Shown here one piece after another: positions 1 through 48,399 of a DNA stretch of 64,000 nucleotides. This DNA is from a virus (taxonomy: Duplodnaviria > Caudoviricetes), in the IMG/VR virus record IMGVR_UViG_3300036770_003093, positions 1-64,000 of that record; one strand, written 5' to 3'. Numbering within the stretch: position 1 is the first letter of the stretch; every line of letters starts with the position of its first letter. Below the pieces are notes generated by a model. The model was not told the origin of the DNA and did not search any database. It saw only the letters and a program-made list of their open reading frames with translations. A program made the translations under genes and the position numbers.

Positions 1-2027
1 TTTGGTTGTATAGCATTTACATTACTTAAAGAAGGATATTTAGTATAGCTAACACCAAGCAGTTCAGATTTTTTATCCTTGCTCACTTTTTCAGAAGCAT
101 CCCACACACTTCCTGAATAAACATCTGCATTGGCAGCCCATTTAATATCTTTAGATTTGGGATAGATTTTAAACCTAATCTTTCCTCCTCCACCTTCTAA
201 ATGACTAATTGTTCTATCTACAGGTTTAGTGAATGCTGAGATAGTGAACTCACCACCTGCTTTCTCATTATCCTCTATATGCTGCAATAGATTTTGCATC
301 ATGAGGTTTACATCAAAATCTGAATAAGCTCCTAAAACAGATACAAACTCTTGTCCTCTTGAATATATTTCTTCAGGGTTATATCGAATATTATTTACTT
401 TCTTCCAAGTTTCTATAATTTCTTTAGCTTGTTCATATTCTTTATTTTTTTCTATGAAACTTTGAGGTAATTCTCCTGCATTATCTAATTTTAGTTCTCC
501 TACATATTTATTTTTACTTAAACGATTTAGATATTCAATTGCTTCTATTTCAGTATTAAATTCTTCATTTATATATCCATCTGCTATAACACTTCCGTCT
601 TCATCATAAGACCACGTTAATCCAGTTACTCTCCATTTATTATTTGGTTTAAAATTACTCAAATCAACATCTTCAACATTTTTAGCTAACTCACTTATAT
701 GATTACTAGCTTCAGCATAAGTTTTAAACTTCCTATTGTCTGGAGTAGTATATTCTACTTCATATCCCGGAAGAATAAGTTTACTATTAGAATACGCTAA
801 TAAATCAGCTAAATCTCCAATAGTCATATTATCAGGAAGCTTATTTATTTCTACTTCTTTAAGACTTAATAAAGAACGAACAAATTGTTTCATTTCTTTA
901 AGAAGTCTTTTAAGTAATGATATTAACTTACCGTCTTTAACTTTATCTAATCTATCAGCAGTATATAAACCAAGCAACTCTACAATAGCTTCTTCTTGTT
1001 GTTCTTCTAAAGAATATTTATTATCAGGACTTTCTAAATATGGTTTGGCTTCTTCTGGAGAATCAAAATATCTATAACCAGATCTACCATTACTTAATCT
1101 ATAATTACCTAATTCAAAATATCCTTTTTCTAAAGTATTTTTATACTTATAATCTCTTTTAATCCTATCTAATACTTCTTTACCTCTGCCATATTCAAGT
1201 TCTTTGAGTAGGTTTTGGTATAGTTGAGAATTAGGTTTACTTAATTTTAAAGATTTAGCATAACTCTCAGCTTCTTTTCTAGTATCAAAATAATCAACAT
1301 CTCCTAAATTTTCATTAGAAAATGTTTCTAATTCAAATTTACCAGGAGCTTTAGGATCATTAGTTTTTCTTATCTTATATTTGAATCCACTAAGCTCTAC
1401 GCCATTTTTAATAGCTCTAATAATAGGGTGTCCTAATATTTCATGTATGGGAGTATCTAAAGTAGCATAAGCTAAATTAATTATAGCTGTATTATTTTTA
1501 ATTTTACCTTTGTATTCCTTACTTCTATCAGATTCAAATCTTACAGGAATACCTATTCTATCAGATACTCTTGCAGCTAAATCTCTAATAGTTTTTTCAG
1601 ATGCTATTTGTCCTTCTGTTGAGGCTAATTGAAAAGATCTATTTACATCTGGTTTAATTGGTGTTCCTAACTCTTGATAAAGGGCTTCAGGTTCAACACC
1701 AGCAAGTTCATCATTTGCTTGATCTAGAGATTTTAATCCAAGCTTTACTTCATAGGCTTTGATTAGTTTAGTTGGCGCCGCAAAGCTTACCACAACTTCT
1801 TTGGGCCCAGCATTGACCGTATACCAGTTATCTGTAAAAGCTGTGTTCTTATATTGACCAATTGACCAGTCTTTTACCATCTTTTCTAGATCACTCTCAG
1901 AAAAGTTTTCTGCTGATGTAGTTAAAGTTGTACCTTCTGGCTTATATAAACCATTAGTTTTTACAACTATATCTGTTATTAGTGATTGAACAGCACTGTC
2001 TGTTAAGTTTCTAATTTTGCACGCCAT
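1..2027 (-). CDS. large virion cargo protein with zincin-like metallopeptidase domain (partial, runs off the window's left edge)
   Basis: Not in the ORF track. Manual translation from ATG at 2027 (MACKIRNLTD...) stays open to base 1. Contains TLDTPIHEILGHP (HExxxH) and downstream EEAIVELLG. Follows the RNAP gene after a 19-nt gap. Confidence 0.85.
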   Translation of the reverse strand, partial: MACKIRNLTDSAVQSLITDIVVKTNGLYKPEGTTLTTSAENFSESDLEKMVKDWSIGQYKNTAFTDNWYTVNAGPKEVVVSFAAPTKLIKAYEVKLGLKSLDQANDELAGVEPEALYQELGTPIKPDVNRSFQLASTEGQIASEKTIRDLAARVSDRIGIPVRFESDRSKEYKGKIKNNTAIINLAYATLDTPIHEILGHPIIRAIKNGVELSGFKYKIRKTNDPKAPGKFELETFSNENLGDVDYFDTRKEAESYAKSLKLSKPNSQLYQNLLKELEYGRGKEVLDRIKRDYKYKNTLEKGYFELGNYRLSNGRSGYRYFDSPEEAKPYLESPDNKYSLEEQQEEAIVELLGLYTADRLDKVKDGKLISLLKRLLKEMKQFVRSLLSLKEVEINKLPDNMTIGDLADLLAYSNSKLILPGYEVEYTTPDNRKFKTYAEASNHISELAKNVEDVDLSNFKPNNKWRVTGLTWSYDEDGSVIADGYINEEFNTEIEAIEYLNRLSKNKYVGELKLDNAGELPQSFIEKNKEYEQAKEIIETWKKVNNIRYNPEEIYSRGQEFVSVLGAYSDFDVNLMMQNLLQHIEDNEKAGGEFTISAFTKPVDRTISHLEGGGGKIRFKIYPKSKDIKWAANADVYSGSVWDASEKVSKDKKSELLGVSYTKYPSLSNVNAIQP

Positions 2028-2046
2028 GATACTAATATACTAAATA

Positions 2047-5000
2047 TTAAGCACGGAAACATGTTCCGTCTAAATCTAGACCATTTAGATCTTCTTTATT
2101 GATTTTGTCTGCTTCTACACCTTCAATACCTTGTTGGTTCTCTCGTATGAGTTCTCTAACAGAAAATTTACCGGTGCCAGAAATTGGTAGACCAAACCTT
2201 TTATATATCTCACCATAAAGATAATCAGCAATAGCTTTTGACCCAGCATAGTCGCCGGCGATATCTTTAGTTTTCTGAGATATAAGTAAGCTATTATCCA
2301 TGATCACATTGTTCTCAGGATTGCTTAATACCTCTTCTATTTTTGCAAGCTGTTGATCAATTATCTTTTTTGCTTGTTCTACATTAGGAGTCTTAGCATC
2401 TGTAATACTTGGTGTTTGTAAAGGAGTCTTTGTAATACCTTTAGTACTAGATACACCCTGTACTGCAGGTTGTTTGTCTCTAACTTCAAATTCTTTAGGG
2501 AGAACTATGTTATCTGCTATAATATAGTTTTCATGTATATCTTGCCAAATTTGCTTAATTTCTTCTGTAGTAAATCCCGCTAAATCAGTTCCAAATTTTG
2601 TAACGTAGAACTTTAAGTCATCTCTAACTTTAGCTCTATCATTTAAGTCAATTACTTGATTATATATACTGTCTAAAGAAACACTTCTTTTTCCTTTAGA
2701 AAGATCTTTAGTTATAATTGCATACGATTGTCCTTGTAATCCTTTTGGTTCACCATATTTAGCACCAAATTTATCTACAGCAGTTTTAGCGGCTCCATCA
2801 CCATGTCTTCCTTCAGTATTACTACCAAATACAAATACTTCATTTGATTTAAGAGATGTAATATTTTCAGGAGTATATTCTATTTGAGAAGGTTGTACTG
2901 TAGTTTGAGTAGAGGGTTGAATTACTTCAAACTCTATAGCATAAGGATATTTTCCTACTAAGTTATCTGTTACAGCTTTCTCCCAACCTTCTTTTTGCCA
3001 TGTAGCATCTTGATACTCTTGGGTAAATGGTGTAACTTTTGTAATTCTAGTATATACTTGTCTTCCTGTTTTATCAGTCATCCTTATAACTTTACCAACA
3101 AGATCTGATATTTTAGATAAATTATAATCCTTAGCCATTCTTTGTATATCAGTCTTAGCTCTAGTAGTTCTAGTTCTATCTCCTGACATAATAAGATCCA
3201 TGGTAGATTTACCTGCAAACTGTGGTTGCATTTTTCTACCTCCATCTCCATCTTTAAAGTTTTGTTGAATCGGAGTTAGATTATCTGCTACGTCAAATTC
3301 ATTAGCAACGGTAGATGGTTGAGTAGCTCTAAATGTATTAGCATATAAATTATCTATAGCTTTTTTACCAGCTTCATTTATTTTACGCGTGCCTATACCC
3401 GCAAAATTTTTAGTAAGTTTTGGAATGCCTGAATACTCTTTAAATATTTCATCTATATAATCATATTGATACCATTTGTTATCAGATTGATTAAACACAT
3501 AAATAGGTCTCTCTCTTCCATCTATTTTTTCAGCAGCATAAGCAATTGCCCATCCTGTACCTCCAGATACATTAGCCATATCAAGGTTTCCTGTATCAGG
3601 TCTTGTATAAAAACTTTCAACTATAGCAAATACAGCATCTGAGTTTTTAATTTGGTACCAGTTTCTTCCTAACTTATTTATTGTTGCGGGATTTTTTGCA
3701 GCCTTTCCTAATCTTGATGCTCCTATTTGAACAACTTTTGCATATTCACTTTCGTCAGTTATAAGAGCTTGTGGATTATTTTCCATCAACCCTATTATTA
3801 GGTCTTTTTCTTTTCCTTCTTTTGCTCTTTTTAGCATGTCTTGATTATGCCAATTCATATTTGATACAGGATAATCAGCTGACCTAAAGTTAAAGTAAGC
3901 ATCAGCACCACGAGCTGCTCCAGAGTTATTTATATTTGATTGAGTTCTTCCTAACTTAATAGTTTTACCTTGTAAGGTAAATGTTGTTTCTGGCCCAGGT
4001 AAGTTAGTAGATGGTTGAGTAGGTTGTACTTCTATGTAACGTAAACCTGTTGATAAGTCTACATCTGAAATATAAAGCTCTCCTGTTTCCTGATCTATTA
4101 AATCATACAAGTTTTTTTCATTCAAAAACCATTTAGTGCTCTGAGGAGCAGTTTCTCTTTTGCCTGTTTGCGTATTATAAAACTCTTTAAATCTAGTCTT
4201 TGATGTAAAAAATTCTTCAGGTAAAGCTCTATTTCCTCTATACTGATTAAAGAGTCTAACATCCTCATCAGATATAATCTTTTCAGTTCTATATTGTTTT
4301 GGTTGAGGTTGTTGTTTAACTGTTTGTTCACCACCTTCCACAAAACCATCTTCTATATTATTAAAACCTATGGCTATTGGTATATAGCGAGCTTTTGTTT
4401 TAGAGTTTCTTATGTACGAAGATTTGGCGGCTTTCTCTTGATTTAAGACAGTTGGATAAACAACATAAATAACATTACTACTTTGATCAATAATACGATC
4501 ATATTGTTCATAAGGTTTTCGTGCATCTCTTAATTGCATGAACAAAAGATTGTTCATCTTTTTAGATCTAACTCCTCTTATTTTTTCTGGTATAAACCTG
4601 GTATATGCGCCTGGAACAGGTTTTACCTTACCCCGATTCCTATAAATTTTTACAGGTATTTTATTACCAATTCTGTTATTTTCCATAAAACTGGCATAAA
4701 AACTTTCTAAAAAGTTTTGAAAACTTTCTTTTTGATCCTTATTAACAGCATTTATAGCATTCTGAATAATAGGATTGATTTCAGTTTTAAAGTCAATAAG
4801 GTTTACCAGATTGCTAAAGTTTTTATTCAAACCCTCTTGTAAAAATATTACCTGCGGCAACATTCTGAACAAAAAGTTTATGGTCTTGATAGAGTCATCT
4901 GATAAACTTGGCACACGCTGCTTAACAGCATTAAAGTCTTTAAGGGCTTTTAATTCATTGTAATAAGAGGTACCGGTTATATTATCTAAACCTTTATCCT

Positions 5001-8000
5001 TAAGAGTAATGGTATCATAACCTTCTACAGACTCTACAAACAAACTTTGTAGAACAACAAACTGCTCTCTTAAAGCCTGGTTCTTTAACGCCAATTTGTT
5101 TAAAATCCTAGCAAAACTATTACGCTGGTTTTGGAATATAGCATAGCTATTAAGACTCTTAAAGTTTGCCCTATTTACCTTTTTAGTTTCTGAATCTAAC
5201 TCAGGATTGGTGTAATCTAAAATAGAATACTCAATCAAAAATCTAGCATAATCATCTACGTAAGGATAAAAGTTTTTAAAGTTGTCATTCTTTGATGCTT
5301 GATCATTATACATCTTGTATATCTGATTGGCATCTACCATTATTACAGGAACACCATTTTCAAAAGCTATATGAACACCTGATTTTAAAAAGTCAGCATA
5401 CTTTACAGGAGTATCTCTAGTAACACCTATCCCGTTGTAAGATGTAGATGAACCTAAAGTAAATCCTCTAACAGCATTTTGATATAACGCTAGTATAAGA
5501 TCGTTTCTAAAAAGGCTATTAATAATCTCATTACCATTGTTTTTACCAGATGTTTTGGCTTTTGCTAGTTTTCTATACTCATCATCATCATTAGATTTAC
5601 TGTTGATAAAGTCATCAACCTCAGACATAAACCTAAAAGGTAAAACTTCTTTTGCGAGCGCTATAGCAAAGTCTCCAATAAAAAATCCACCTAATATAGA
5701 TTTTTCAGGATCTTGAACCGCCTCTATTAAAGACCGATCTATTCTACCATCATAAAAAAGTTCAGCTATAGCAGCTTCTCTAGATCTTGTTGATAGATAT
5801 GTGTTTTCTCTAGTAGTATCCACATTTGTTGCCCGCGTAAATTTGGTAAACGCATCTGACATATTTAATATCTCAACAAAGTGTAATAACACTTTCTCTT
5901 GATAGTCTTTATCATAACCAGTAGGATCTAGCTGACTCTTTAAATCTGCAAGTTTAAAATCTTCAGTTACTTCTTGCTGAGATATATATACAATTCTTTC
6001 TACACTCTTTTGACCCAACAATTCTTCTAGAGCTTTTTCTTTTGATGTACCTGCTTTAACTTTTACAAACTCTCTTATTATAGGTTGAGATACAAAATAT
6101 ACAGCATATTCTACAGGTACCCCGGCCATGATCATATACATCAAAACTGGTGTGATCTCTTTATTACCCTGAATATAAAATATCCATGGATCTTTACCTA
6201 CGTCAACCCAACCATTAATCATCTGGTTAAAGACATCAGATATTTTATGAGAAGCGGCATCTTTTGTCTTAGCTGTATATGTGTTACTCAATGATATCCT
6301 TTTGCCACGTTTTTGATGAGGCATTAATATTCTAACAGGTATCTCTACAGTTTCCTGTCCAATATCAACTGTATAAGATTCTGGTGAAACAGCACCTAAG
6401 CTATTAAGTAATACATTATAAGTGTTCATGATGGCGCCAATACCTAAAGCATCCATGGCCGTCATATAAGCTTCATACTTACTAATGTTATACTCAGATT
6501 CAAATAGTCTTGTTGGACTAATAACTCCTGTATTTTTTGAAGTTGTGAGTCTTTCTAGAGGATTATAAGTCTGAGTTTTTCTTTTAAGCTCTGCTGCTAA
6601 ATCATCAAATATATCTGTGCTGTTAGGTGTTACTAAAGACACATAGTTTTCAGGGCTTAGTAATATATCTGTTGCTGTTTCTAGGAGGTCTGTTTGCAGC
6701 GCGCCGGTGAAATCACGCTCAACATCTAAAACATACTTAATCTCAGAAAGAAAATCTGATGACCTATCAATTGCGTCATTGAACTCATTTCTTACATCTT
6801 TAAGTTGTTCTATCTGATTGCGTAAAGGTTCTAGCTCTTCAAATTTTAACTTATCAAACTCCTGAATTTTGGAATATAGTCGTTTGTTAAACCTCTCCAA
6901 AATATTTTCACCTTTCTTGTTTAAAATCTTAGATGATATACGAAGAGCTTTTATAATGTCTTTATTCTCATAATCTGGTTTTGAAAGAGCTTTTTGTAAT
7001 GGTTTGGGTAAAAACTTTGATTGACCATTCTCTATATCTAAAGCAATCAGTTTATTAATATCCTCAACAATAAAGTCTCTACGAATCTTAGCATACTCAA
7101 GAATATTTGCGACACTATTAAGTTCTTCTTTAGTTACTTTCTTGTCAGCCTTAAGATTATCGATGATTTCTTTAACATACTTTTTAACATCTTTCCTATC
7201 TAAATTTAGCTCTTTCTCTAATTCAGAAATTCTATTTCTAACATCTTGTTTTGTAGCATATTTACTGGCAGATATTATTTTTCCAGACCTACTAATTCTT
7301 GGAAACAAAGATGGTAGTTTGTCAAAGTCAAAGTCACCACCAGACTTACCAACAATCTCAGATGGTAAAACAATTATGTTGCCTGCGCCAGGAGGTAAGA
7401 ACTCATATATCTCAGCAGCATCAATTGAACTTTGACCCTGAACAGGTATCCTTACACCAAGTATTGTTATAGCTTTACGATTATCATCCTTATCTAACCA
7501 CTTATCATCTTTTATAAGAGTATTCAACCTTTTAAGACTAGCTTCTAGATTAAGTACTTTTTTAGTAGTACCATCTTCTTGTTCAACAAATTCGTAGGTA
7601 CCTATTTTAATACCATTCAAATCTTTTCTCTGAAACAAGTTAAAATAATCACCATGCATTGTAAGAGCAACCTTCATAGCTTTTACTCTAACAGGATCAT
7701 ATTCATAAAATGGTAAGAAGTTATTTGTCCCTAACCATTTTTTACGCTCTGACTCAGTAGCTTTTCTCCAAAAAGATCCAGGTACCTGTACTAATCCTTC
7801 ACCATATGACTTTTGAAGTATAAGCCGGCGGCTGATTACAGAGAAAATAATAGACTCTATTATCTGAGCATTGGGTATCGCAGATAAATCATTTATGAAC
7901 GTACCCTCTTCAGTAACAGATAAAAGATCTACTATATACGATGGTATGTTCTTCTTCTCTAATTGCTTCTGTAAAAACGCTGCAAGCTTTTCTTTTGATC

Positions 8001-11000
8001 CTGAATATGTACCATCAGGATTCTTTACCCAACCAATTTCGTCTAAAAGATCATTCTCTAAGCTTTCTGTAACATCTTTAATTCTTTCTAAATACTTTTC
8101 TACTAGAACCTCCTTGCCAGGGATAATTCTGCCGTCTAAAAACAAGTTCTCAACAATTAACTTACGCATCTGCGTAGCAAATGTTTGACCTGCTTTCCAA
8201 AGATTAGTATTACTTGTAACCTCTTTTAAGTAAGAAATATTAACAGGATTGACAACAAACTCAACATCCATGTTAATCTTGTTGCGATCATTATCCTCAT
8301 ATAAATCTACAGGGTTTTCAACATTGGATATCTTTGAACCACTAGGGTATGTAATGTAATCAATGTTGTTGATAATCATAACTTTATGAATATCATTCAA
8401 CAAAGAATCTTCAATTACATTAGGTATTAAAGGTGAAAGACTAAACTTATGAAGCGCTGTAATAGGAGCTTCTGTTTGTAGATCACCATACATTTGAAGC
8501 TTGTATGTAGGAAAGAAAAACTTCGCGTCGTTTTCATCAAGTGTTTCTCCATTTACAATCTTTTGGTACAGCGCTTCTTGTTGAGGTAACCAGTTATCCT
8601 GTGCAATTTTTAAGTGACGGTATGTATCTAAATTGATATAACCGTGACCATCACCAATCTTCATACCGGCACCATAAGCTTTATCAAAAGCTTTTATAAC
8701 TTCATCTTTAATTTTCTTTTTGCTTCCTTTCTCTCGTTGATGTCTTAGCTCGGTAACCTTATTAATCATGTCATCAAGACTAACAGATCTAATACCTGTA
8801 TCTTCTTTAATGATTGATGTGTTAAGAATTTCTGTTGTAGCTTTTACAGCATTGTCTGGGCGAAGTTCTCGCATAACAGACTCACTGTATGTTTTGGGGT
8901 AATTTTTGTTTATTTCATCTAATATCCACTGATCTGTTATAAATCCAGGCCCACCAGAAGCAGCACCTGCATCATATTTGGTACCAGCTTCTTTTGTATG
9001 ATCATATTGAGCCATGTCACCATAGTAGAAATTATTCATTTCAAACCGGTGTATAAAGTAGTTAACAGTATAAGCTCTTAACAATACATTGTTTTTATCT
9101 TGAGGATTTAATCTTTCATTGTTTTGAGTATCAAAAACTCTATCTACAATGTTTTGGTCGATGAAAATTTCACTAGATGACTCATTAAATCTTTTTGTAT
9201 TTAACGCCTCATTCTTTTCAAAATAACTTCTTAAATCATTAGCAATTGCTGCCGAATTATTATCAATACTAACTCTAGAAGAAACACCTTCGGCAATATC
9301 TCTATAAAGATTTTCTTTAGTTTCTGCTGATAAAATATCATCAAATGCCGTAAATACATCGCCGGCTTTTCTAGTAACCTCTTTACCCTCAGAATCAATA
9401 ACTATTACATCTTTGTTTAAAGCTTGGTTTTTCTTGTAAAGATCATCTGTCTTAAATAAAAGAATCCTTTCATACTCAGCTCTTATATAGTTGTTTATAA
9501 TAATGTTAGCCTTAGAAGGTAAAATAGTATCTACAAAGCTATTAGCATCAACATATAAACTTGCGGAACCATTTTGATCCTGTATGTAATTCACGTACAC
9601 ACTAGATTTACTTTCATGCACAAGAGTAGGCATAATACCCTCTAGCATAAATGAGTAAAAGTCATTTATAAACTTCTGGTTTGCTGTTAAATCTGAGGCC
9701 GCTAAACCCTTAACTATATTACCATATTCATCTAATTTCTGGTATCCTAAATGGTAACCTATAAAAAGACTAAAGTTCTTAGTTCTTCTACCGTTTTTAT
9801 CAAACAGTTTTGATCTTACAATACTGTGTTTAAAGAAAGGGTTTAGCTCTTCATTGAACGCTGCATTAAAATCAACAGCCTGAGTAAGGTTTGAACTGCT
9901 GTTTATTGCCGCGGTTTTCCTAGTCATAGAATTATGCATAGAAACATCTGTCACGATATCCCCGTTTGCATTTAAGACGATGCTGTTATTATATAAAGGG
10001 CTATAAAGCATTTCAATATCTGCAATTTTACCCAGAAGTGTTCTTTGTGAAGTAAACTTTTTGACTTTTACAGTAAAGAATGAAAGAGGATTAGCTAAAA
10101 AATCTTGATTGTTTTTATGAGTTTCAATATCATTTTTCATTGAGAGAACCGCTTCTTTCAAAGCATCAAGCGAAATTTTTCCTGATCTGATAACGTTTTT
10201 AGTTGTATCTGTTAACTCAACACCTAATACCTCTAAAAACTCAAAAACCTTATCATATGATACCTTCTCAGTAATTCTTGGAAGTTTAGCAGGATCTAAA
10301 AGAATACTACCATCTCTATTAATAGGCGTTTTATACTTAAAATTAGAAGACCAATTATTGAAAACATTATTAAGACTGTTTGTTGCTCTACCAATAGTAA
10401 AAAGGTTACCTCTTATTGTTTCACCTTGTTCCGCATCTGCTTGTTGTGGCGATTGTCTGTTTAAAAAAGCTTCCATTTTAGCTTTATCAAAAGCCTGCCA
10501 GAAACCAATTAATATGTCAAGAAGGGTTTGTTTCTGTACAGTTTTTGAAGTCTGAGTAAAAGAGTCTTGGTTTGGCAACATTGCTTTTAAAACACCTAAT
10601 ACTGGAAAAGCATCAACAGCCTCACCTAGTTTATAAAGCATGTTATCATAAGAAGACTCATTGATCAAAGTCTTAGTTATTGCATTAATTGTATGACCTA
10701 GATTTTTAACCTTTGGAAAACCTAAACTATTACGTTTGTAAACAAACATTTTACCTCCAGCAATCAAGTCTGCATCTCGCCCCTCTGTAATGCTCACATC
10801 AGGAATTAAGCTAAGAATGGTTAATAACGCCTTTGGTAGATAGTCTATAATCAAATGATTATTTATCTTCTTATCTCCCATTTGTCCTTGCAACTCTTTG
10901 TTATCAGTAGCATCCGGGTTTGTTTCAGCCTCTATATCCTCATCATTTATAGAAACTAAGTTTGATATAGAGCTATTAGAAGATCTAGAATAGAAATCTA

Positions 11001-13839: not shown

Positions 13840-13843
13840 AGAA

Positions 13844-16800
13844 TTAACATTTTGCGTTGTTAGCTAAATCGTTTTCAAGACCTTCAGAATCTTCAGTAAC
13901 CTCTTGTGTAAAAAATGAAGGATCAACCATTACTCTTTGTAAGTTTTCATCAGTAATGTTCAGCAAAAGAGTTTCTTCTGTAGTTAATTCTACAGGTGTT
14001 TCTGTTGCATCAACAATTGGATCAAACGTATTCATAAACTGAGAAGTACTAATTGTTTCTTTAACACTAGGATCTGTTACCAAAGATACAGTGATTTCTT
14101 TTTTAGTTGCATTATAAGATACGATTTTATAAGCAGTATTTATAGAAGGTGTTTCATCTTTTTTATGAAAAAAGTCAAACTCGCCAATTGGCCTAATCTT
14201 TAAATTATTAAGTTTCTCATCTAAAGCCTTAGTTAATAAATCTGTTGTTTCATCATAACCATAGTCTATAAGAAACTTAACTATATCATTTTTTAGAAGA
14301 TAAAGCTCTTCTGCTGTAGTCGCATTTGAAATTTTTTCGCGCAGTATGTCCGTAGCTTCTTGTTTATTTCTAAAGACACCTGTATCTGTTACAGCAACCC
14401 GTCCTATTGTTTCCCCGGTTTCTTTATCAACAATATTTAAAACATCTTCATAAACCATTGATATACCAAAATCTTCAATGACAGATTCTGATAATAGAGA
14501 GATTGTAAACTCTTTATCGCCGGGGTCTTGATATTGTTCTTTTTTATCAGTGTCTATATAAACAGCAAGCTTTACTATTTTTCCACTTATAGGTATCTTT
14601 AGTGTAAAACTATTATATTGTTTATTATAAGTTATTTTACCAGATAAAGTGTTTCCTGCTTTTATAAGTTCTCTAATAAAATCTGCTTTCTCGACTATAT
14701 ATTCAGCCTTTGGTCTTCTCTCTATTTTATTTAGAGTTTTAACTTGCTCATCAGTTAACTCAATTTCAGTGGGTGTTTCTTCAGCACCCTCTTCTAGAGC
14801 AGCTAGTTCTGCATAAGCACTGCTATCTTTTCTACCAACTTCTTCAAGAGCTTTCATAGCCTGCTCTCTAGTCATTGTGCCCTTTTTAACAGCGTCTACA
14901 TATTTTGCATCGTATTCATTGTTGATTTTATCAACATTATTATTGTATTTAAAAACAAAAAAAGTATCCGACGTTTTATCTACTTTTGTAAAACCTACTT
15001 CTGTTATTTTACCCTCTCTTGTAAAGATTTTATCTTCTTTTAATATACTCTTATCAGGGTTTTTTACATCATTGCTTAAAGAATTTTTATAGATTGTTTC
15101 TTTATCATTTAGTTTTTCCTGTCTTCCTCTTTCTATATCAGCTTTAGCACCTGTACCTGTGGCACCTTCACCTTCTAAAGCTTTTAGTTCTGCATCATAT
15201 TTAGCGTTGACAAAAGTTTCTAATGATGCAAGTTGTTTATATGAGTTTGCAATTTTAATAACTCCAGTCCCTGTAGGAGTAGAAAATTTAATACCGTTTG
15301 ATAAAGTAATTTCAATATTGTCGTTTTCTTTTGACATATAGAAATACGTAATATCCCAGTTAAAGTTTGTTTCTAGGAATTTCCAAATCTTTTCTGCAAA
15401 TTTTTTAGAGTCGGTATCCTGTATACTAATAAATTCACTTTGCAGCCTTTTAGCTTTTTCTATCTCAGCTTTAGCATCTGTAGCCCCACCAACTTCTTCT
15501 GTTTCTTCTTCTGTATCCTCAGTTTCTTCTTCTGTAACAAATGCTGATCTTTCTTTAAAGATTTCATCTACCATTTGAGATAGAGTCATTTCTCTTTTAG
15601 TATCATCATCTACAGAATCGCTAGCAAATACTACAAACTTTTCGTTCTCATTAATGGTGATAAAGGGTTGCTCTGGAGACAGCTCCTGATTCTTAACTTT
15701 TGAAGGTTGCTCTACACCATTTATTTTTCCTGTTGCTAAATCATAATCAACTTGTAATGGTAGAATACCAAGGTTTACTTTATCTAAACCGGTTATCTTT
15801 TGTAAAATACGTTTGTATATAATCTGCTGTAAAGCGTTTTTTATATAATTTTTATAAGTATCTGTACCTAAACCGTATTTTTTCCACTTTCCAGCTGTAC
15901 CAGTTTTTACGTCTACAATCCACCACTCTTGATTCTCGTCTATAAACAATAAGTCCATTTGACCAGCAATCTTTGTGTCTTCATCAAACAAGATTTCTGT
16001 TTCAGATGCTATTTGACCAACAGCCTCTCTAAAAGGTTTTAGAAGTTCTTCAAGTTGTTTTGCAGCTTCTTTAGATAATAGTTCTGTTTCTTTTACACTT
16101 GTATCTACATCCGCTACAAAGTCACGTACTCCAGCATCAAACTCGTCACCTACTTCTCTTGATGTATCATATAACCTTTCAGAAAGTGCTAATCCAAAAT
16201 CATCAAAATACTCTGTAAGAACATCTTTTGGAGTAGTAGGATTAGCCAATACTTCTAAAAAATCTGGTTTAGAAGCTATGTATTTATCAAATGCTTTTAA
16301 GGCTCTTTCTAAATTAAAGGCACCTCTTGTATATTTTACAATTGATTCTTCAAAATGTTTTCTTACATCAGTAGCCCTATTATTTTCTACTTCTTTTCTT
16401 AACTCAAGTAAATAAGTACTTACTGTGCTAACAACACCAAAAGGTTTAATTCTAAAATACCTTTGTAATATACCTTCAACAATTACAGTTACCCGGGCGT
16501 AATCTTCTTCATTAATCAAATATGCAGTAGATGACTTTAAAGGTTTACCGTCAGTTCCTGTTTCAACTGCCTGCATTCTTGCGGAAATAGCATTTAGTAC
16601 TCTTTCAATTTCTTGTTCTACAATAGCAACATCTTTATTTCTAAATGATTGTAGCTCTTTTAGAAATGCGCCAAGGTTATTTACATCTTCTTGTAAATCA
16701 GCGTAGCCAGCATCTGTTTTATTTAAACCAGAAAGTTTGTTCTTTAAAGACTGATAAAGACTACTAACATATAACAAAGACTGATCAGAGGTAACTTCTT

Positions 16801-17530
16801 GACCAGTTGTTTTGAGTTTAATATTGTCAGGCTTTTTTCTGCTTGGTGATACAGCGCCGGTACTTAATGCAGTATTATATTGTTCAATAATAGTCCTGGC
16901 AATCGTTGTCTTTAAAAAGTTATTTATATCCCTGTATAATAAAGGCTCTTTAGATTTAAGATCAGTAAACTTCTCATCAAGTCTGTCTTTAAGGGCCCGC
17001 AATTGAGCAAACTCAGAAGTATTAGGTAATAGCTCAAAGTCCTCATATGTAATATCAGAGACTACTATTTTTTCTCCAGGTACAAGACTAGTTTCTTTTT
17101 CTTCTTCCTCTTCTTCCTCTTCTGCAGATATAGGCGTAGTTGTCGTGGTGGTAGCAGTAGCAGGCCCCGTTGCTGTTGTACTTGGTAATGTCCCCGCAGG
17201 TCTAAATCCAATGTATATAAAAATGCGCTCTAAACCTTCTACAGGATCAGTAAACCTGTTAACCATGTCTAGAATAGCATCTTCTCTATACTTTGTTTCA
17301 TCTAGCAAAGTTTTAAAAGTAGAAATGCTTCTACCCTTATTGATAATAGCAAAAGCTGTTTGAACAAACATGGCCGCGCGATTTACACTACCAGTTTGTA
17401 AAGCGACCATATCAAACAAATCAGTCATATACTGATCAATGTCAAATGTCTCAGCATTCGCATTGATGTGAGCATACACATCATTAGCAAGATCAAATAC
17501 CTGTTCCCGGGTTAAAGCACAAGTTATCAT
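13844..17530 (-). CDS. large virion cargo protein with PD-(D/E)xK nuclease domain
   Basis: IAGQMDLLFID...WWIVDVKTG...ALQQIIY is a RecB/Cas4-like PD-(D/E)xK signature (about 15820-15970). Two AKA[ED]IE...AEL[KA]ALE modules. Sits in the cargo gene block. Confidence 0.75.
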   Translation of the reverse strand: MITCALTREQVFDLANDVYAHINANAETFDIDQYMTDLFDMVALQTGSVNRAAMFVQTAFAIINKGRSISTFKTLLDETKYREDAILDMVNRFTDPVEGLERIFIYIGFRPAGTLPSTTATGPATATTTTTTPISAEEEEEEEEKETSLVPGEKIVVSDITYEDFELLPNTSEFAQLRALKDRLDEKFTDLKSKEPLLYRDINNFLKTTIARTIIEQYNTALSTGAVSPSRKKPDNIKLKTTGQEVTSDQSLLYVSSLYQSLKNKLSGLNKTDAGYADLQEDVNNLGAFLKELQSFRNKDVAIVEQEIERVLNAISARMQAVETGTDGKPLKSSTAYLINEEDYARVTVIVEGILQRYFRIKPFGVVSTVSTYLLELRKEVENNRATDVRKHFEESIVKYTRGAFNLERALKAFDKYIASKPDFLEVLANPTTPKDVLTEYFDDFGLALSERLYDTSREVGDEFDAGVRDFVADVDTSVKETELLSKEAAKQLEELLKPFREAVGQIASETEILFDEDTKIAGQMDLLFIDENQEWWIVDVKTGTAGKWKKYGLGTDTYKNYIKNALQQIIYKRILQKITGLDKVNLGILPLQVDYDLATGKINGVEQPSKVKNQELSPEQPFITINENEKFVVFASDSVDDDTKREMTLSQMVDEIFKERSAFVTEEETEDTEEETEEVGGATDAKAEIEKAKRLQSEFISIQDTDSKKFAEKIWKFLETNFNWDITYFYMSKENDNIEITLSNGIKFSTPTGTGVIKIANSYKQLASLETFVNAKYDAELKALEGEGATGTGAKADIERGRQEKLNDKETIYKNSLSNDVKNPDKSILKEDKIFTREGKITEVGFTKVDKTSDTFFVFKYNNNVDKINNEYDAKYVDAVKKGTMTREQAMKALEEVGRKDSSAYAELAALEEGAEETPTEIELTDEQVKTLNKIERRPKAEYIVEKADFIRELIKAGNTLSGKITYNKQYNSFTLKIPISGKIVKLAVYIDTDKKEQYQDPGDKEFTISLLSESVIEDFGISMVYEDVLNIVDKETGETIGRVAVTDTGVFRNKQEATDILREKISNATTAEELYLLKNDIVKFLIDYGYDETTDLLTKALDEKLNNLKIRPIGEFDFFHKKDETPSINTAYKIVSYNATKKEITVSLVTDPSVKETISTSQFMNTFDPIVDATETPVELTTEETLLLNITDENLQRVMVDPSFFTQEVTEDSEGLENDLANNAKC

Positions 17531-20500
17531 TTACACTCAAGATTACTAGATAATTTATTTCTACTTGCAGTAACATCTGCGTTAAAAGCAAATGTATCAT
17601 CAATTAAAGAATCAACGCTACTAACACTTGAGTTAGCAAAACCTTTTTCTTCTTCTGTCACATCTGGTACATCACCACGCTCTTCTACAGGAACTGAATC
17701 TTTATTGTTAAGCTGACGTACAATCTCAAGAACCTCTATATAGTTTTGATACTCAAGAGAGTCAGAATCTACAATTACTCCTCGTCTTGTATCAATAAAA
17801 TTTATGGAAGTCTTTCTATTACTAGGCGCATTCACATAGTTTGTAAACTCTTCTGGAGAAATGTATATCTGAAAATTTTCAGCAAGATAGTTTAGAGCAG
17901 CATTCTTCTCATGGTTCTTTAAAAAGTTGTTGACAATTTTATCAGCATATGTTTTACGTTTGTTATACATATCCTGCATTATCAAAAAGTTTCTATTATA
18001 CTGCTCACTTAAAGCCGCCGGATCAAAGAAAGAATCAATAAATGGTTGTATGCTGCGTAAATTAGATTCTATAGTATGATAATCTACAAGTTTACCTAAA
18101 AACTTTTGAAGCTTCTCATCTTCTATATTTGATAAACGGGCACCTTCTTGTGTAGCAAGTGTAGTAAAAATGTTCTTTGATTTAGTATGAATACGAGCTC
18201 TTAGTTCTTGAGTTTTTTGCTCATATTTTTTCTTTAAGTTCCTTGTCATTTTCGCCTTTGCGCCACGTTTAGCAGTTTTATAAGCAGCACTGTTTTTAAG
18301 ATTTTGCCAAGCTAATTTAAACACATCATCATATCTTTTATACATCTGAATAAGATTGATCACTGAAACATTTTCAGGAATATTAAATGCGCCAAATGCA
18401 AACGCATCATCTAAAGATATCTCACCTAAAGATGTACCAACAGGTCCAGATATCATTGATAACAACTCTTTCTTTTTCTTTAGAGTTTCCTTGTCTTGTG
18501 GTTTAGTTGATGCTTCTAGTATCTCAATCTCACTTTCTAAAAGAACTATTTCATTGTAGGCTGTTTCTGGATTAAACATCATCTGGAATAAACTATTACT
18601 TCCTTTGTTTACTTCTGAGTGTAAATCCATGGCCTCTTTATAAAGGGCCTCCTTCCTCTCAAGTTGAGCATCAAAAAGTTCCCCGTGGAATGCCGCATTA
18701 AACACAGTATGATGATAAGCTTTCTCCCTAAGTTTAGCTAAAACATATTCTGGAGAATCTTTAATCATGCCTTCAGTTGATGCCTCTGCAGGTTTTTCAA
18801 AGTTTTCTAATACATAATTATATCTAGATTGAATAGCTTGAACCTTTTTCTTAAACTCTGGTGCCTGCTCTTTCATACTTTGAGCTTTCTCTTCAGTCAC
18901 ACCATATGCATCGGCAATGTCTTTTACATCAAGTTCTTCTAAAGTATCTAAGTTTTCCAAATAGTAATCAAGTGTTCCTGTTTGTATAGCAGTTAATATC
19001 CCGGATGCTCTTGCTGCATCACGCTCATTTTTCTGTTGCCATTCGTCATTTCTTAACTGAGCATTATCCATACCTTTTGCAAACTCATCTTGTGCTGCAG
19101 TATTAAAGAACCTACTGTCAAACATTACATCAACATCCTGCATCATTTCAGTCAATGTCTTTGCTAACTCAGGACCGTATTTATCTCTTGCTAGTTTATA
19201 ATTTTCATACTCAGCTTTATCAAAGAAATAGTTATAAGCAATTGGCGCCTTTTCAATACCGGCATTAATAGGTTTCATATGCATACCTATCAAGAAGCCA
19301 GAAAGAAATGTTTCTAAACCTTGACCGCTTAATTGTTTTTTTGCTCCATGTAAATACGCAGCTCTATGTGCAAGAGCATTTGCCGCCGTAGGATTGTCAA
19401 AAGCTTCTATGTAATACTTCTTTGCTCCCAGAGAAACAGCTTCTTGAAAAACTTCCTGGAAACCTTCCATAAAGTTAGACGCAGTATATCTTAATGCACT
19501 ACGAAGATGTTTTCTAGGATTTGTAAAAACTTTTAGAGGAGGTAAAATAGTGTCTTTTATAAAATCTATACTTGGTTTTTTACCTTTACCCGCAGCGTTT
19601 ATAACAAAATAACCGCCTTTTCTTTTAACTACATTGTCTGCAAAAGCGTTGCTTATTTCTCTGATTGGTTTAAAACCTCTAAAGGCATTACCAATAGTCA
19701 TACGATTACTTAGATATATAATCGGCCAGTTTAACCACGCGGCTTCTTGACCAGCTGATTCAGCACTTGTATAGATCTCTTTTACCTTAGCATCAGATAA
19801 AGGTTGATTGTTATTTTTTTGTAACTCTTTAGCATACAAACTTTTGTAAACTTCATTGTTTACAAAACCACCTTCTAGATTTGATTCAGATAAAGCAACA
19901 GATAACTCTTTAACATCTCTAAAAAATGCACCACCTGTGGTTGCTACTTTAGCTAAAGATGTAAGGTTCTTAGATTTTCTAAGATCCATAAATGCCTCTG
20001 TTGTTTGACGCAAAGGGTTAGCAAAGTTTACAAAATCACTACCCGCTGCTTTCCAGAATGTTTTAGCACGCATAGGATTTTTAGAAAGATTCTGTAATGC
20101 TTTACGAGTTTTGTTTAATGCACCATAGATATCACCAACACTACTAACTATTTTACTACCGCTACGCAGAGCTGCAGGTGCAGTACCTAGTCCTCTAGTT
20201 GCAGCCGTAATAGCAGCAGTTTCTGCTAATGACTCCATCGCTATACCAACAGTATAAGCAAAAGACATTTGTATATTAGATAGGCTTGATAGCATGCCTC
20301 CCCTGGATGAATAACCCATCTCTGTAGCTTTCTCATACTCACGAGCCTGATCAATATTACCAAGAGTTTTATTACTTGAGCTCAATAAATCTGGGATAGC
20401 CATAAATGAATCAATGGCACCACGTTTAGCTAATGGGAAAAAACTTTTAGTCATCATTCTGGTCCAATCATCAAACACACTTGTATTTGCATTGTACACA

Positions 20501-20871
20501 GATTCGTTATCTCTATAAGGATTAAAACCTAATTTGTTTTTTACATCTCCTAATGCATAGTATCTTTCAAAAGATTGACCAGATAAATCTTTACCACCAT
20601 ATTGAAACAGAGATGCTAGTCTTGGAGATCTAGCAGCATTAATGTTTGCAGCATCAGCTTTTTGTTGTAACTGTTGTTGAAAAAGTGTTGCTGGATCTCC
20701 TGATGTAGATGTTATTCCTGATGCTAAAGGATCCGCCGTTGTAGCATATGGATTAGGTCTACCAATAGCATTATTATAACCGCTTTGTAATACAGGATCT
20801 TTTGGTAAAATATCTCTTTGAATACCTGCTAATGGATCAAAATTAGCATTTGGTTCTTGTAACTCAGCCAT
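17527..20871 (-). CDS. large virion cargo/ejection protein with Ala/Gly-rich hydrophobic helices
   Basis: 1114-aa ORF with hydrophobic stretches (FAYTVGIAMESLAETAAITAATRGLG; FLSGFLIG) and an EGFQEVFQE motif. Position resembles crAss-like ejected proteins. Confidence 0.6.
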   Translation of the reverse strand: MAELQEPNANFDPLAGIQRDILPKDPVLQSGYNNAIGRPNPYATTADPLASGITSTSGDPATLFQQQLQQKADAANINAARSPRLASLFQYGGKDLSGQSFERYYALGDVKNKLGFNPYRDNESVYNANTSVFDDWTRMMTKSFFPLAKRGAIDSFMAIPDLLSSSNKTLGNIDQAREYEKATEMGYSSRGGMLSSLSNIQMSFAYTVGIAMESLAETAAITAATRGLGTAPAALRSGSKIVSSVGDIYGALNKTRKALQNLSKNPMRAKTFWKAAGSDFVNFANPLRQTTEAFMDLRKSKNLTSLAKVATTGGAFFRDVKELSVALSESNLEGGFVNNEVYKSLYAKELQKNNNQPLSDAKVKEIYTSAESAGQEAAWLNWPIIYLSNRMTIGNAFRGFKPIREISNAFADNVVKRKGGYFVINAAGKGKKPSIDFIKDTILPPLKVFTNPRKHLRSALRYTASNFMEGFQEVFQEAVSLGAKKYYIEAFDNPTAANALAHRAAYLHGAKKQLSGQGLETFLSGFLIGMHMKPINAGIEKAPIAYNYFFDKAEYENYKLARDKYGPELAKTLTEMMQDVDVMFDSRFFNTAAQDEFAKGMDNAQLRNDEWQQKNERDAARASGILTAIQTGTLDYYLENLDTLEELDVKDIADAYGVTEEKAQSMKEQAPEFKKKVQAIQSRYNYVLENFEKPAEASTEGMIKDSPEYVLAKLREKAYHHTVFNAAFHGELFDAQLERKEALYKEAMDLHSEVNKGSNSLFQMMFNPETAYNEIVLLESEIEILEASTKPQDKETLKKKKELLSMISGPVGTSLGEISLDDAFAFGAFNIPENVSVINLIQMYKRYDDVFKLAWQNLKNSAAYKTAKRGAKAKMTRNLKKKYEQKTQELRARIHTKSKNIFTTLATQEGARLSNIEDEKLQKFLGKLVDYHTIESNLRSIQPFIDSFFDPAALSEQYNRNFLIMQDMYNKRKTYADKIVNNFLKNHEKNAALNYLAENFQIYISPEEFTNYVNAPSNRKTSINFIDTRRGVIVDSDSLEYQNYIEVLEIVRQLNNKDSVPVEERGDVPDVTEEEKGFANSSVSSVDSLIDDTFAFNADVTASRNKLSSNLECK

Positions 20872-20873
20872 AG

Positions 20874-23800
20874 TTATTGAGGTATTACAGATTCAGGACT
20901 GATAATAGCTTTTATGTTTGCCATTGTAACTTGATCCATCATGTCATCATATTGTCTTAAAAGCTGGCTAAACTGAGCGCCGTTTGTAACTACGTTTCCT
21001 AAAACAGGATTAGTAACAGTATTGGTTTTATAAACCTGTTTTATAGGATCAAAGAATCTATAATCAACAGTTGCTGTATAACCTTGATATACTGGATCAA
21101 ACTGTATGTTTAAACTTGCATCACCACGGCGATTTTCTTCTTGATAGAATGGGCGCCCTTTATCATCTTTATTACTAGCAAAAATATTATATCGTGGATC
21201 TATATTATAGCTATCAAACAAACCAGATGTAAAACCATCTTCATCTCCATAAATAGTAAAACCTTGAGTTGTTAATTTATCTTTTATTGAAACAGCTGTC
21301 TCATCTGGAAGAGCTAGTTGTTTTATTGTAGAGTTAATAATCTCATCTGGGATGTTTGTAAACATATAACCCCGTTTATCTACACTACCGCCAATTTGTA
21401 ATAATGGAGCAATCTGAAATGATTGTTTACTATCTGGATCAATAGCTTCACTATATAATCTTTTGGTAATTTCTTTTATAACTTTTAACTCATCTTCATC
21501 AGCTAACTCTTTAGGATCATAACCTATTGATATTTTAGGAGCACCAACTAATTGCTGGTCAACTTTAGCTAAAGCAGATTTAATATCTGTCTGATAAGCT
21601 TGAAAATAACTCATATTAGTAGGTGTCTGCTTATACTCACCGGCAATTTTAAAGTTATTTACAGAAAGCTTACCATCAACACTTGTACCAAAAACACCTA
21701 AGCCTGCAGTCATAGGACTGCTAGGACTTATTTTTAATCCCATTTGTGGATCAGCTGCCATTTCTGCAGCTGTAGCATTTAAAGCTTTAAAAGCTTGATC
21801 ACTTATAGATTCAAAAAATACTTTTTTACCAGCTTCATCCGTAAGACGAGCGTTTTTAGGAGTATCAACATTATCTTGTATTAATTCACCCTTGTAAAAA
21901 ATATTCATTTTAGGTACATAAACACCAGACATAAAACCTGAAGGAGCAATAACATGTTGAATAGTTATATCTTTTCCAAACTTTAAATTCATATCTCTAG
22001 CAATCTCTTGAGGACTTCTTAATCCACCATCTGAATCAAGCATGCTTTGTTTAATCATATTAAACTGAGACTCACGAGCTTGTTTAACTTTTTCACTTGG
22101 TTTTAATAACCAACCAACAGCTCCAAGTACTGCTCCTGCACCATAAGGTACACTTTTAAGACTCTCTGCAGCTTCTCCAACATCTTCTAGCCAACTATTA
22201 CTTGACTCTTCATATGCTCTCATTGTAGCATCTAAAACTCTTCTATTAAACTCGTTAGTTTTTGATAAATCAACCTGTGCTGATTTAATACTTTGGTCAA
22301 TTTTTCTAAGTTCTCCAGCATATTGTACAAGCTGTTGACCAATTTTAGTTTTTAATAATCCCTCATTACCCGGTTTTAAAGGATCAATTGCTTCTAATAC
22401 AGGATTTATTGCAAATAAGCCGGTTGTTTTAGTTGCTTCACGATTTTGTTTAATCTTACTAAGAATGACTTTAGCTGTTGCAGCATCTGGTGTATTACTT
22501 TTTGAAACCTCATTTAAGTATTTAACTGTATTATTTACAGTAGTAATCTGTGTGTTTTTAACAGTTCTTTCACTTTCAGTAACAGTTTTTGCATAATCAA
22601 GAGGTTCTCTATCTTCATCAAGAAGATCTGCTGAAATTTCTTCAGTACCTATTTGTAACATGTTTAAGTTTAGAGCTTCTTGTTCTTTTTCACGCTGTTT
22701 AATCTTTTGTTCTTCTTCTAACCTTTTCCATGCTTGTTCTTCTCTAAACTGAGCACGAGCATTAGCACCTGCTTCACGCATTCTTGCTAAAGCAACAGCA
22801 TTAGCTTTAACTTTAATTTCAGCACCAAGAGCAGAGTTATTTATAGCGGCATATAGAAAATCACGATTCATCTTATAGTAAGCAACTATTGCATCTGCAC
22901 CTTGTGGTGTATATTGAGGTCCTGTTTGTCCAGATGAAATACCAGAAGGTAATACAGTTTTATAGCCACTATTAATATCATCGGCAATCTGTGTTACAGA
23001 TCTACGATTAATTTCATTGACCTGTATCTGTTCTTCAAGATTTTGTTTAGTTTGAACAAGGGGATGATTCTCTGTAAGATTAGGTATATCTGCAAGAAAC
23101 TTCTTTATCTGATCTAACTGATTCTGTAATGATGTCCCTTGAGTTTCAGCATTTTTCTTTGCATCATCAATCATTAATTGATAACCCTCATACTTTTCTT
23201 TAGCATATATAGAGTTGGCTTCTTCGCGAGATATACCCTGAGCCTCAGCACTACGTACAAAGTTTTCACGTTCTACATATGCATCTACAGCATACATTTT
23301 TTTAACAGCAGGATCCTCACCAATTAATGCTTTATAGTGCTCGTATAAAGGTACCTGTACAAGTTGACCATTCTTTTTAGTAACAATGTACATTCCTTGA
23401 GGAGTCTCTTGAACTACAGGTTTAAACTCTTTTGCTAGGTCTAAAGCCCGCTTCATTACATCAATCCTCGGTACAGCATCTGGTGCTGACATTAATAATG
23501 CTTGATCTGCAGAAGCATTCTTATACTCCTCCATTTTATACTGTATATACTGCGCACCAGGTTCCCAATATTTACCAGGACAGTTTTCACCAACACATGA
23601 TTTTAATGACTCTAATGAAGAAAAGTTTTCCATGGATTTTTTAGTGTAACCCATGTCATGTAAAAGATTCTTGTCATTATACAATGGTGAAAAAACCTGA
23701 AGAGCTTGCTGGACATTTTGATCCAAAGACAAGTCCATGCTAGTAATCTTTTGTATAGCAGCAACAGATTGTTTAAAATACTGATCTCTGTTTTTAATAT

Positions 23801-42787: not shown

Positions 42788-42830
42788 AATTATAATATAC
42801 TAATTATATGGCTTCTTTACAAATATATAC

Positions 42831-42862
42831 AAAAAGCAAGCCCCCATTAAAGGGGGCCGCTT
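42831..42862 (-). terminator. intrinsic terminator downstream of the Cys-rich gene block
   Basis: Minus strand AAGCGGCCCCC-tttaat-GGGGGCTTGCTT followed by a T run. Confidence 0.8.
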
Positions 42863-42865
42863 CGT

Positions 42866-42894
42866 TGTCACAGATAAACCAACAAACTGAGACA
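42866..42894 (-). other. 3'-UTR stem-loop, candidate antisense RNA element
   Basis: TGTCTCAG-(TTTGTTGGTTTAT)-CTGTGACA, 7 of 8 stem positions paired. The loop is complementary to the AAACCAACAAA leaders. Confidence 0.45.
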
Positions 42895-42898
42895 TATT

Positions 42899-43789: not shown

Positions 43790-43792
43790 GAA

Positions 43793-44335: not shown

Positions 44336-44336
44336 T

Positions 44337-45833: not shown

Positions 45834-45862
45834 GTTATTTAATATACAATTTTTTGGGTTAT

Positions 45863-47762: not shown

Positions 47763-47781
47763 ATTTGTTGGTTTTAAATAG

Positions 47782-48324: not shown

Positions 48325-48338
48325 ATGCTAAGATATAT

Positions 48339-48378: not shown

Positions 48379-48399
48379 AACTTAAGATTTCAGAAATGA

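Follow-up and report, generated by a model that had tools for sequence, protein, structure and literature searches.

The 64,000-nucleotide (nt) stretch analyzed here, referred to as the window, is the first 64 kb of the IMG/VR virus record IMGVR_UViG_3300036770_003093, a single contig of 118,243 bp. Four consecutive genes encode giant proteins of 1114, 1228, 3930 and 3402 amino acids (aa) that are almost free of cysteine (Cys), and the few Cys that they do have lie at the very ends of the proteins, facing each other across the gene junctions. On balance, the pattern as a whole is best explained if these proteins are cargo segments from which Cys has been purged, joined to each other via terminal Cys at the points where the genes are split.

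In the window the pattern is simple. The chain-start protein of 1114 aa (positions 17527-20871; all window genes discussed are on the minus strand) has one Cys, the penultimate residue Cys1113 (TGT, 17533-17535), and none at its N-terminus. The second member, of 1228 aa (13844-17530), has Cys4 (17519-17521) and the last residue Cys1228 (13847-13849), and the third, of 3930 aa (2047-13839), a zincin and virion RNA polymerase (RNAP) by homology, has only Cys3 (13831-13833) and Cys3927, fourth from the end (2059-2061). The first 675 residues of the chain-end protein (1-2027) contain only Cys3 (TGC, 2019-2021), and the open reading frame (ORF) continues over the ends of the record. Completed over the join it encodes 3402 aa with Cys3 alone; the C-terminus, which has none, is the same in relatives. 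Since this gene spans the record ends, the record is a circular permutation cut within a gene; its first 100 bases are repeated exactly at its end, though the 159-bp end copy (G000:C1:118085-118243) differs in places.

The Cys counts of the four proteins are 1-2-2-1, that is six Cys in 9674 residues, and all six lie at most four residues from a facing terminus, at three junctions, with both outer termini Cys-free. If Cys were placed uniformly, the chance that all six fall within four residues of one of the 8 termini would be about 1e-15. Chain proteins contain 0.12% Cys. The corresponding figure is 1.21% for a control set made up of 226 ORFs outside the chain, each 100 aa or longer, drawn from this genome and from 11 loci of named Crassvirales genomes. 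Among these control ORFs only 4 (1.8%) have a Cys at residues 2-6, and 26 (11.5%) have one in the last 10. The first-pass annotation of this DNA had placed all six Cys at the termini of the roughly 6900 residues then visible; each of its Cys coordinates is reproduced in the four ORFs, and the statement now extends to all 9674 residues. It had also taken the lack of an N-terminal Cys in the first protein for the mark of a chain start, which agrees with the Cys-free outer termini and with the relatives described below, where an outer Cys has a partner in the neighboring gene.

Judged by homology, the 3930-aa protein is an RNAP, as the first-pass annotation had already said. Specifically, residues 1645-2238 match crAss001 gp50 (blastp, E 3e-15) and residues 1730-2180 match phi14:2 gp077 (E 2e-12 and 7e-8), which is identical to chain A of PDB 6VR4, the crystallised RNAP. 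The catalytic DFDxD motif is present as D2169-F-D-F-D2173 (7321-7335, within GDFDFDK), with D2169, F2170, D2171 and D2173 invariant in a 12-sequence alignment (A6); the Drobysheva preprint names this motif in its abstract. The conserved core, residues 1587-2612 (6004-9081), served as search query and has tblastn matches in 79 records of Crassvirales and crAss-like phages, although its identity to named Crassvirales is only about 23%. The same protein also has a zincin-type HExxH motif, H698-E699-x-x-H702 (11734-11748, YHEAWHGF), where Y697, H698, E699 and H702 are invariant in alignment A6; a Pfam search of the protein gave no family at threshold, so no curated zincin model matched. Residues 530-757 match residues 1983-2203 of crAss001 gp47, in the C-terminal part of gp47, and because the HExxH motif stands beside the RNAP, the 3930-aa protein is a fusion in which part of a gp47-like module is joined to the RNAP. 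The 1228-aa protein matches gp47 weakly (residues 1713-1803), and the 3402-aa protein matches the crAss001 gp49 / cr118_1 gp15 module (both blastp). By these homologies the four genes are the gp47-gp50-gp49 'RNAP-associated cargo' block of Crassvirales, cut elsewhere and with the 1114-aa protein in front.

The location of the block agrees with this assignment. The minus strand of the window carries a crAss-like structural module, with terminase, portal, major head protein, Cys-rich tail genes and a 1680-aa muzzle-like protein, after which comes a run of giant ORFs that ends in the four chain genes. According to published work, the RNAP of phi14:2 and crAss001 is packaged in the virion and ejected, and homology together with the position beside the tail and muzzle genes suggests the same for the RNAP of the window.

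The terminal Cys are conserved in close relatives. In the family of the 1228-aa protein, which falls into two clades of 75-94% and about 50% identity, 15/18 members have exactly Cys4 and a last-residue Cys; in the remaining three one end is cut off, while the Cys persists at the intact one. In the 1114-aa family, 18/19 homologs, down to 23% identity, have a single Cys 0-5 residues from the C-terminal end within otherwise unrelated flanks, and Cys1113 is an invariant column in alignment A5. For the 1228-aa protein, tblastn against INPHARED and a single-sequence scan of IMG/VR gave no matches, and an alignment-based scan of IMG/VR gave 2 loci. Two IMG/VR genomes (G001 and G002) have the full four-protein Cys pattern.

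The same rule holds in named phages. We compared the RNAP block across CRASSVIRALES in 15 named genomes, from Steigviridae, Intestiviridae, Suoliviridae and one unclassified, and found Cys on both sides of all 19/19 clear split junctions, 0-10 residues from the upstream C-terminal end and at position 3-6 of the downstream protein. In Steigviridae (crAss001, cr112_1, phi14:2) and Dulem virus 41 the block comprises three chains, and both junctions are Cys-paired; Intestiviridae (p-crAssphage, Rudgehvirus, cr110_1, cr11_1, cr271_1) have the layout A | B-C with one pair, and Suoliviridae (cr118_1, cr50_1, cr52_1, cr55_1, cr10_1) the layout A-B | C with one pair. The clearest example is phi14:2, with 4 Cys in 5398 residues: the sole Cys of gp078 is its last residue, gp077 has only Cys3 and Cys2179, and gp076 only Cys3. 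Three of these genomes need comment. The junction of cr110_1 was counted after shifting the annotated start 14 codons downstream, to MSC as in its relative cr11_1, since the start of gp40 (L017 11663-24916) is probably called that much too far upstream. At the junction of cr10_1 the downstream ORF (MKIICPNL..., L021 after 19525, following gp32) is unannotated, and cr52_1, which has a recoded stop, was read with table 11, relying on its annotated termini only. Finally, cr108_1 has one clear pair and a further break between its genes 54 and 53 (L008 21824-22115), which are split by a 290-nt gap and a TTG start and jointly cover the RNAP core match; these may be one interrupted gene, via an intron or a frameshift.

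At larger scale, a phmmer search with the RNAP core against 1.84 billion cluster representatives gave 1856 matches at E ≤ 0.001. Among the best 150 of these 1856 we find 137 full-length proteins (at least 3000 aa, with a Met start), for which terminal Cys were counted in the first 8 and last 12 residues. Both ends have Cys in 122/137, only the C-terminal end in 14 and only the N-terminal end in 1, and 104/137 have no internal Cys at all. Taken together these proteins have 304 Cys in 498,721 residues (0.06%), and 260 of them are terminal. In IMG/VR another alignment-based scan gave 79 loci, 72 of them non-redundant. Here both Cys are present at 57/58 assessable upstream junctions, the exception (L045) having a 197-nt gap and a doubtful start, and at 65/65 downstream junctions. 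Among 42 complete trios the Cys counts are exactly 1, 2, 1 in 28, and 167/185 of all trio Cys sit at facing termini. The chain-end family has an N-terminal Cys in 37/38 hits, among them one whose Cys, at position 12, comes after an internal Met; the remaining hit is marginal. Seven of its hits also have a C-terminal Cys, mostly short split forms of at most 2158 aa that cover part of longer homologs.

The exceptions at the outer termini turn out as the chain logic predicts. The last protein of a trio has a C-terminal Cys in only 2/42 cases (L079 and L085), and in each the ORF that comes next has a Cys in its opening residues, MGQLC or MAGTC; in L085 this ORF itself ends in Cys, and the one after it begins MKC. 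Likewise the first protein has an N-terminal Cys in 2/42 trios, namely the 1228-type proteins of G001 and G002, and in both the preceding protein has a C-terminal Cys.

The Cys also follow the points at which the genes are split. The split between the 1228- and 3930-aa proteins of the window falls within crAss001 gp47, which has no internal Cys; conversely the gp47|gp50 split of crAss001 falls within the 3930-aa protein, itself without internal Cys. Natural fusions behave in the same way: in P0030 and P0037 (1114+1228) and in P0107 (a 1114-like module + RNAP) the fused position has no Cys and the N-terminal domain is missing. Thus the Cys appear where the polypeptide is broken and vanish where it is continuous. 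At the same time they are indifferent to the arrangement of the DNA: crAss001 gp47 is on the opposite strand from gp50 and gp49, the pairs are kept across inserts of 735-814 nt between genes, the spacing at junctions varies between -11 and +30 nt in differing frames, and TGT and TGC both occur at each of the four Cys sites. The inversion of gp47, the inserts of about 800 nt and the use of both codons exclude a cause at the DNA level. The inserts, which may be mobile elements, lie between the RNAP gene and the next chain member (L038, L042, L043, L045, L071, L075).

The termini that carry the Cys have a recognizable structure. The N-terminal domain of the 1228-aa protein (residues 1-109, 17204-17530) is all-helical, is capped by Cys4 and is followed by a linker rich in T, P and E; in the 3930-aa protein a helical domain of residues ~1-131 (13447-13839) carries Cys3 on a short arm before a helix at residues 7-26. 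The first-pass annotation had proposed that these two N-termini are homologous, which a deep profile bears out: with a 124-sequence RNAP profile, hhalign gives 98.9% and E 2.8e-17, with 107 columns in register from Met1 and the similarity covering about 110 residues, compared with only 40% probability for 3-sequence profiles. A hidden Markov model (HMM) of the 124 RNAP N-termini matches the 1228-aa family from residue 1 onward in all full-length members (E ~1e-15 to 1e-17; ~1e-15 for the window protein), and only 1/151 domain hits starts past residue 30, a second partial match in P0179. AlphaFold2 models the domain of the 3930-aa protein from a 55-sequence alignment as all-helical with a mean confidence (pLDDT) of 88.6; for this model Foldseek finds no PDB match at E ≤ 0.001, the best having E 0.84. 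The upstream tails form acidic, amphipathic sequences with hydrophobic residues at -2, -5/-6 and -10 relative to the Cys, and are modeled as a lower-confidence helix that ends three residues before it; both Cys are on lower-confidence terminal arms in the models.

Cys3 is the sole invariant column in the 55-sequence alignment of the N-domain, and the Cys is likewise the sole invariant column in a 52-sequence alignment of the C-terminal tails. A lack of conservation of the terminal Cys in homologs, which the first-pass annotation had named as grounds to reject its idea, was looked for at scale and is not what we see. By hhalign, also with the deep profile, no homology links the N-terminus of the 3402-aa protein to those of the 1228- and 3930-aa proteins. 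That the chain-end N-termini nevertheless have their Cys at position 3-6 ties the requirement to the chain end, not to one fold. A complex prediction that paired the tail of the 1114-aa protein (residues 935-1114) with the N-terminus of the 1228-aa protein (residues 1-112) scored 0.31 and 0.01 against a mark of 0.32, with controls not folded, and so speaks neither for nor against binding.

We propose the following mechanism. The four genes would encode consecutive segments of a virion-packaged and ejected RNAP/cargo complex in a divergent crAss-like phage. Cys would have been purged from these segments, as in other ejected phage proteins, save one on a short flexible arm at each terminus that a split creates. 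The C-terminal Cys, which ends an acidic amphipathic tail helix, would meet Cys 3-6 of the next protein, most likely forming an inter-chain disulfide in the released virion, and the N-terminal domain may be the docking site for the preceding tail, as was first suggested in the first-pass annotation. With both Cys so close to the chain ends (overhangs of 0-9 and 2-5 residues), the product would be nearly unbranched and therefore threadable: a pseudo-single polypeptide of ~1.1 MDa, which could unfold and pass through portal and tail in a fixed order, after which the reducing host cytoplasm would part the segments. The steps differ in strength. The facing termini are very probably paired physically, head-to-tail. 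A disulfide is the moderately favored form of the link, a reading that fits since there is a single Cys per side and no other conserved ligand. Ordered threading with reductive release is plausible and we hold it tentatively. Published work gives some context: purified crAss001 virions have inter-subunit disulfides in tail and portal-vertex proteins, the cargo proteins of crAss001 must partly unfold to pass constrictions of <50 Å and their exit order is unexplained, and some phages have the three proteins of the RNAP block joined in one polyprotein.

Several observations weigh against this interpretation. In the 1114-aa family the one exception, P0037, has no Cys at all. Two named phages have an orphan Cys near a C-terminus, for which the next gene supplies no N-terminal Cys: Cys856 of 857 in p-crAssphage gp47 (L009 2694-5267) and Cys747 of 757 in Rudgehvirus g49 (L015 528-2801). 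These genes encode the first cargo protein, and the homologs in cr110_1 and cr11_1 do not have that Cys. Of the trio Cys, 18/185 are internal. Among the RNAP representatives 14/137 have no Cys in the first 8 residues, and only four of these are accounted for: P0067 and P0144 have mis-called starts (an internal Met gives MK[VI]TC), P0118 has Cys9, and P0107 is a fusion with a 1114-like chain-start module. The remaining ten may be truncated calls. A single Cys per terminus is equally compatible with a disulfide and with a thiolate-metal bridge. Anoxic guts are the habitat of many of these phages, whose assembly takes place in a reducing cytoplasm, which means that oxidation would be needed after release; no thioredoxin or glutaredoxin is detectable in the genome of the window by searches whose controls worked, and a search for Erv/ALR, whose control matched nothing in any control genome, gives no information either way. 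Lastly, our literature searches found no statement on terminal Cys in crAss cargo or RNAP proteins, and the word 'cysteine' has 0 occurrences in Bayfield 2023, Yutin 2021, the 2023 Crassvirales review, the N4 2026 paper and the Drobysheva preprint; the Nature paper on phi14:2 and all supplements were outside the scope of these searches, and a remark there is possible.

The best surviving alternative is that the facing Cys are thiolate ligands of a metal site between subunits (Zn, Fe or Cu), perhaps with four Cys from several copies of a junction, that acts as a non-covalent clamp. Such a site would produce the same paired and conserved pattern of terminal Cys; it requires no oxidising step, which suits phages of strict anaerobes, and published work takes each cargo protein to be packaged in several copies. 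We nonetheless consider it unlikely. No conserved His, Asp, Glu or second Cys stands beside the terminal Cys in the N-domain or tail alignments, where the Cys is the sole invariant column, and neither the CxxC of a zinc hook nor the at least three conserved ligands of a structural Zn site are found. A site with two ligands is unusual for Zn. A site built from four Cys would, in addition, be a bulky branch point, which could not be threaded until the metal is released.

A second alternative makes the role of the Cys pairs transient: through temporary disulfides or thiol contacts they might guide co-assembly and packaging in the infected cell, or help the RNAP complex to re-associate after ejection, with the chains unlinked in the virion. 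Head-to-tail pairing and the tracking of splits fit a transient role equally well, and the P22 tailspike is a precedent, where temporary inter-chain disulfides reportedly occur in assembly and none in the native state (PMC3357383). What a transient role leaves unexplained is why the Cys are 0-9 residues from the ends in every lineage and why all others have been purged; a very terminal position is just what a link that can be threaded would require. This makes a purely transient role distinctly unlikely.

It is also conceivable that each terminal Cys has a partner or modification of its own, e.g., attachment to the portal or inner capsid, homodimerisation of like termini, or acylation, with no links between the chains. 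This reading would accommodate the orphan C-terminal Cys of p-crAssphage gp47 and Rudgehvirus g49. It predicts, however, that neighboring genes are unrelated in this respect, whereas the outer termini are Cys-free in 40/42 trios per end, 4/4 exceptions have their partner next door, and fused forms lose both Cys jointly; we regard it as very improbable. Finally, a nucleotide-level or annotation artefact (a translational-coupling motif, read-through of one giant ORF, or a split intein) is suggested only by the compactness of the window, where paired Cys codons are 4-13 codons apart and two junctions are tightly coupled, one by an ATGA overlap of the 1228-aa gene start with the 1114-aa gene stop and one by a 4-nt spacer, and can be practically dismissed given the opposite strands, inserts, variable gaps and mixed codons described above, flanking residues that vary freely around an invariant Cys, and, for an intein, Cys 0-10 residues from the C-terminal end and 3-6 from the N-terminal end, which leave no room for N- and C-intein blocks.

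Other features of the chain proteins vary more than their ends. Residues 482-619 of the 1228-aa protein (15674-16087) form a PD-(D/E)XK nuclease domain by Pfam PF12705, which matches at 23.7 bits against a cut-off of 22, a narrow margin. In this family a T/P/poly-E linker (residues ~110-150) follows the N-terminal domain, the middle third is hypervariable, and close relatives vary in length between 1118 and 1506 aa, both termini being conserved. Relatives of the chain-end protein (P0196, P0197, P0200, P0202, P0205, P0207, P0209, P0217, P0219) have variable precomputed Pfam domains, among them PF06414/PF13671 kinase-like, PF18760 and LysM PF01476, and a conserved ~750-aa module at differing positions, which suggests a modular, shuffled cargo protein; Pfam finds no family in the 2726 C-terminal residues of the 3402-aa protein.

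Upstream of the chain the window has further cargo-like proteins. Those of 1034 aa (20874-23978) and 1519 aa (30888-35447) each have exactly one close Cys pair, C128/C133, which is kept in G001 and G002, and C170/C175, respectively; a 1092-aa protein has zero Cys and no Pfam family. In residues 724-839 of the 1198-aa protein (27264-30860) there is a weak match to YkuD (L,D-transpeptidase), with E 1e-3 and 20.1 bits where the cut-off is 23.4; Pfam matches for this protein and for the 1034-aa protein are all sub-threshold. The close pair of the 1198-aa protein consists of Cys869, in an SYGC motif, and C879, and the protein may be an ejected cell-wall enzyme with Cys869 as catalytic residue. We considered whether the close internal pairs of the 1034-, 1198- and 1519-aa proteins are staples left at fused junctions, an idea that is weakened because Cys869 lies in the SYGC of a weak YkuD-like domain and because fused homologs of true junctions have no Cys. 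The ORFs of the tail module (40486-50028) have 3.1-8.3% Cys, compared with 0-0.2% in the cargo genes, in agreement with the disulfide-stabilised tail of crAss001 known from the literature.

That Crassvirales eject an RNAP/cargo block, and that N4-like ejected proteins are depleted of Cys, was already known. New relative to the literature searched are the rule of paired terminal Cys, the way in which it tracks gene-fission points, and the N-terminal domain with its Cys cap. According to the 2026 N4 paper, the crassvirus ejection proteins still await structural resolution. The Cys rule yields predictions of the contacts between termini, their order and the residues involved, also for the cultured models crAss001 and phi14:2. 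As a tentative generalization, crAss-like phages, including a large uncharacterised clade with >1800 RNAP clusters, may stitch their ejected proteins into one megadalton thread by terminal disulfides that replace the peptide bond at each gene fission; ejection would be one continuous ordered translocation, and reduction by host thiols would free and activate the virion RNA polymerase. If true, this would account for the free fission and fusion of genes in the RNAP block, line up the multi-chain crAss system with the single-chain RNAP of N4, and make one step of phage infection dependent on redox state. For annotation, too, the rule is of use: it fixes mis-called starts, exposes unannotated chain members and delimits the ejected set in metagenomic phages.

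The closest known system is the RNAP-associated cargo of Crassvirales (crAss001 gp47/gp50/gp49; phi14:2 gp65/gp66/gp67, in GenBank gp078/gp077/gp076), which is homologous to the block of the window, lies at the same location after tail and muzzle genes, has the DFDxD motif in common and obeys the same terminal-Cys rule. The window differs in having four chains that are cut elsewhere, 1114 | 1228 | zincin+RNAP 3930 | 3402, and in the core identity of only ~23%. In working principle the proposed chain resembles AB toxins, in which two chains joined by one disulfide pass unfolded through a narrow channel and are separated by reduction in the cytosol; the likeness ends there, as the toxin chains come from a nicked precursor, are not known to be homologous to the cargo proteins and are not virion proteins. 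The zinc hook of the Rad50 type likewise clamps Cys from separate chains, but it gives a CxxC per chain where the crAss-like termini have a single Cys, and split inteins also combine a split gene with a nearby Cys, but need ~100 + 35 flanking residues. Within the virion, the disulfide-bearing tail and portal-vertex proteins of crAss001 are external and have many Cys, in contrast to the internal, Cys-depleted cargo proteins.

According to published work, Schitoviridae (N4, DEV) too package a giant RNAP in the virion and eject it before the DNA, and their ejection proteins are almost Cys-free, which the authors tie to an earlier suggestion of transit through the oxidising periplasm. Chain proteins of the crAss-like block are likewise far poorer in Cys than the rest of the proteome; they differ from a type without any conserved Cys in that their terminal Cys are the only invariant columns. 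The N4-type RNAP is, by the same sources, a single polypeptide of ~3500 residues (N-terminal domain, core and C-terminal domain) with essentially no Cys, whereas the crAss-like set consists of 2-5 polypeptides and has Cys only where the chain is broken.

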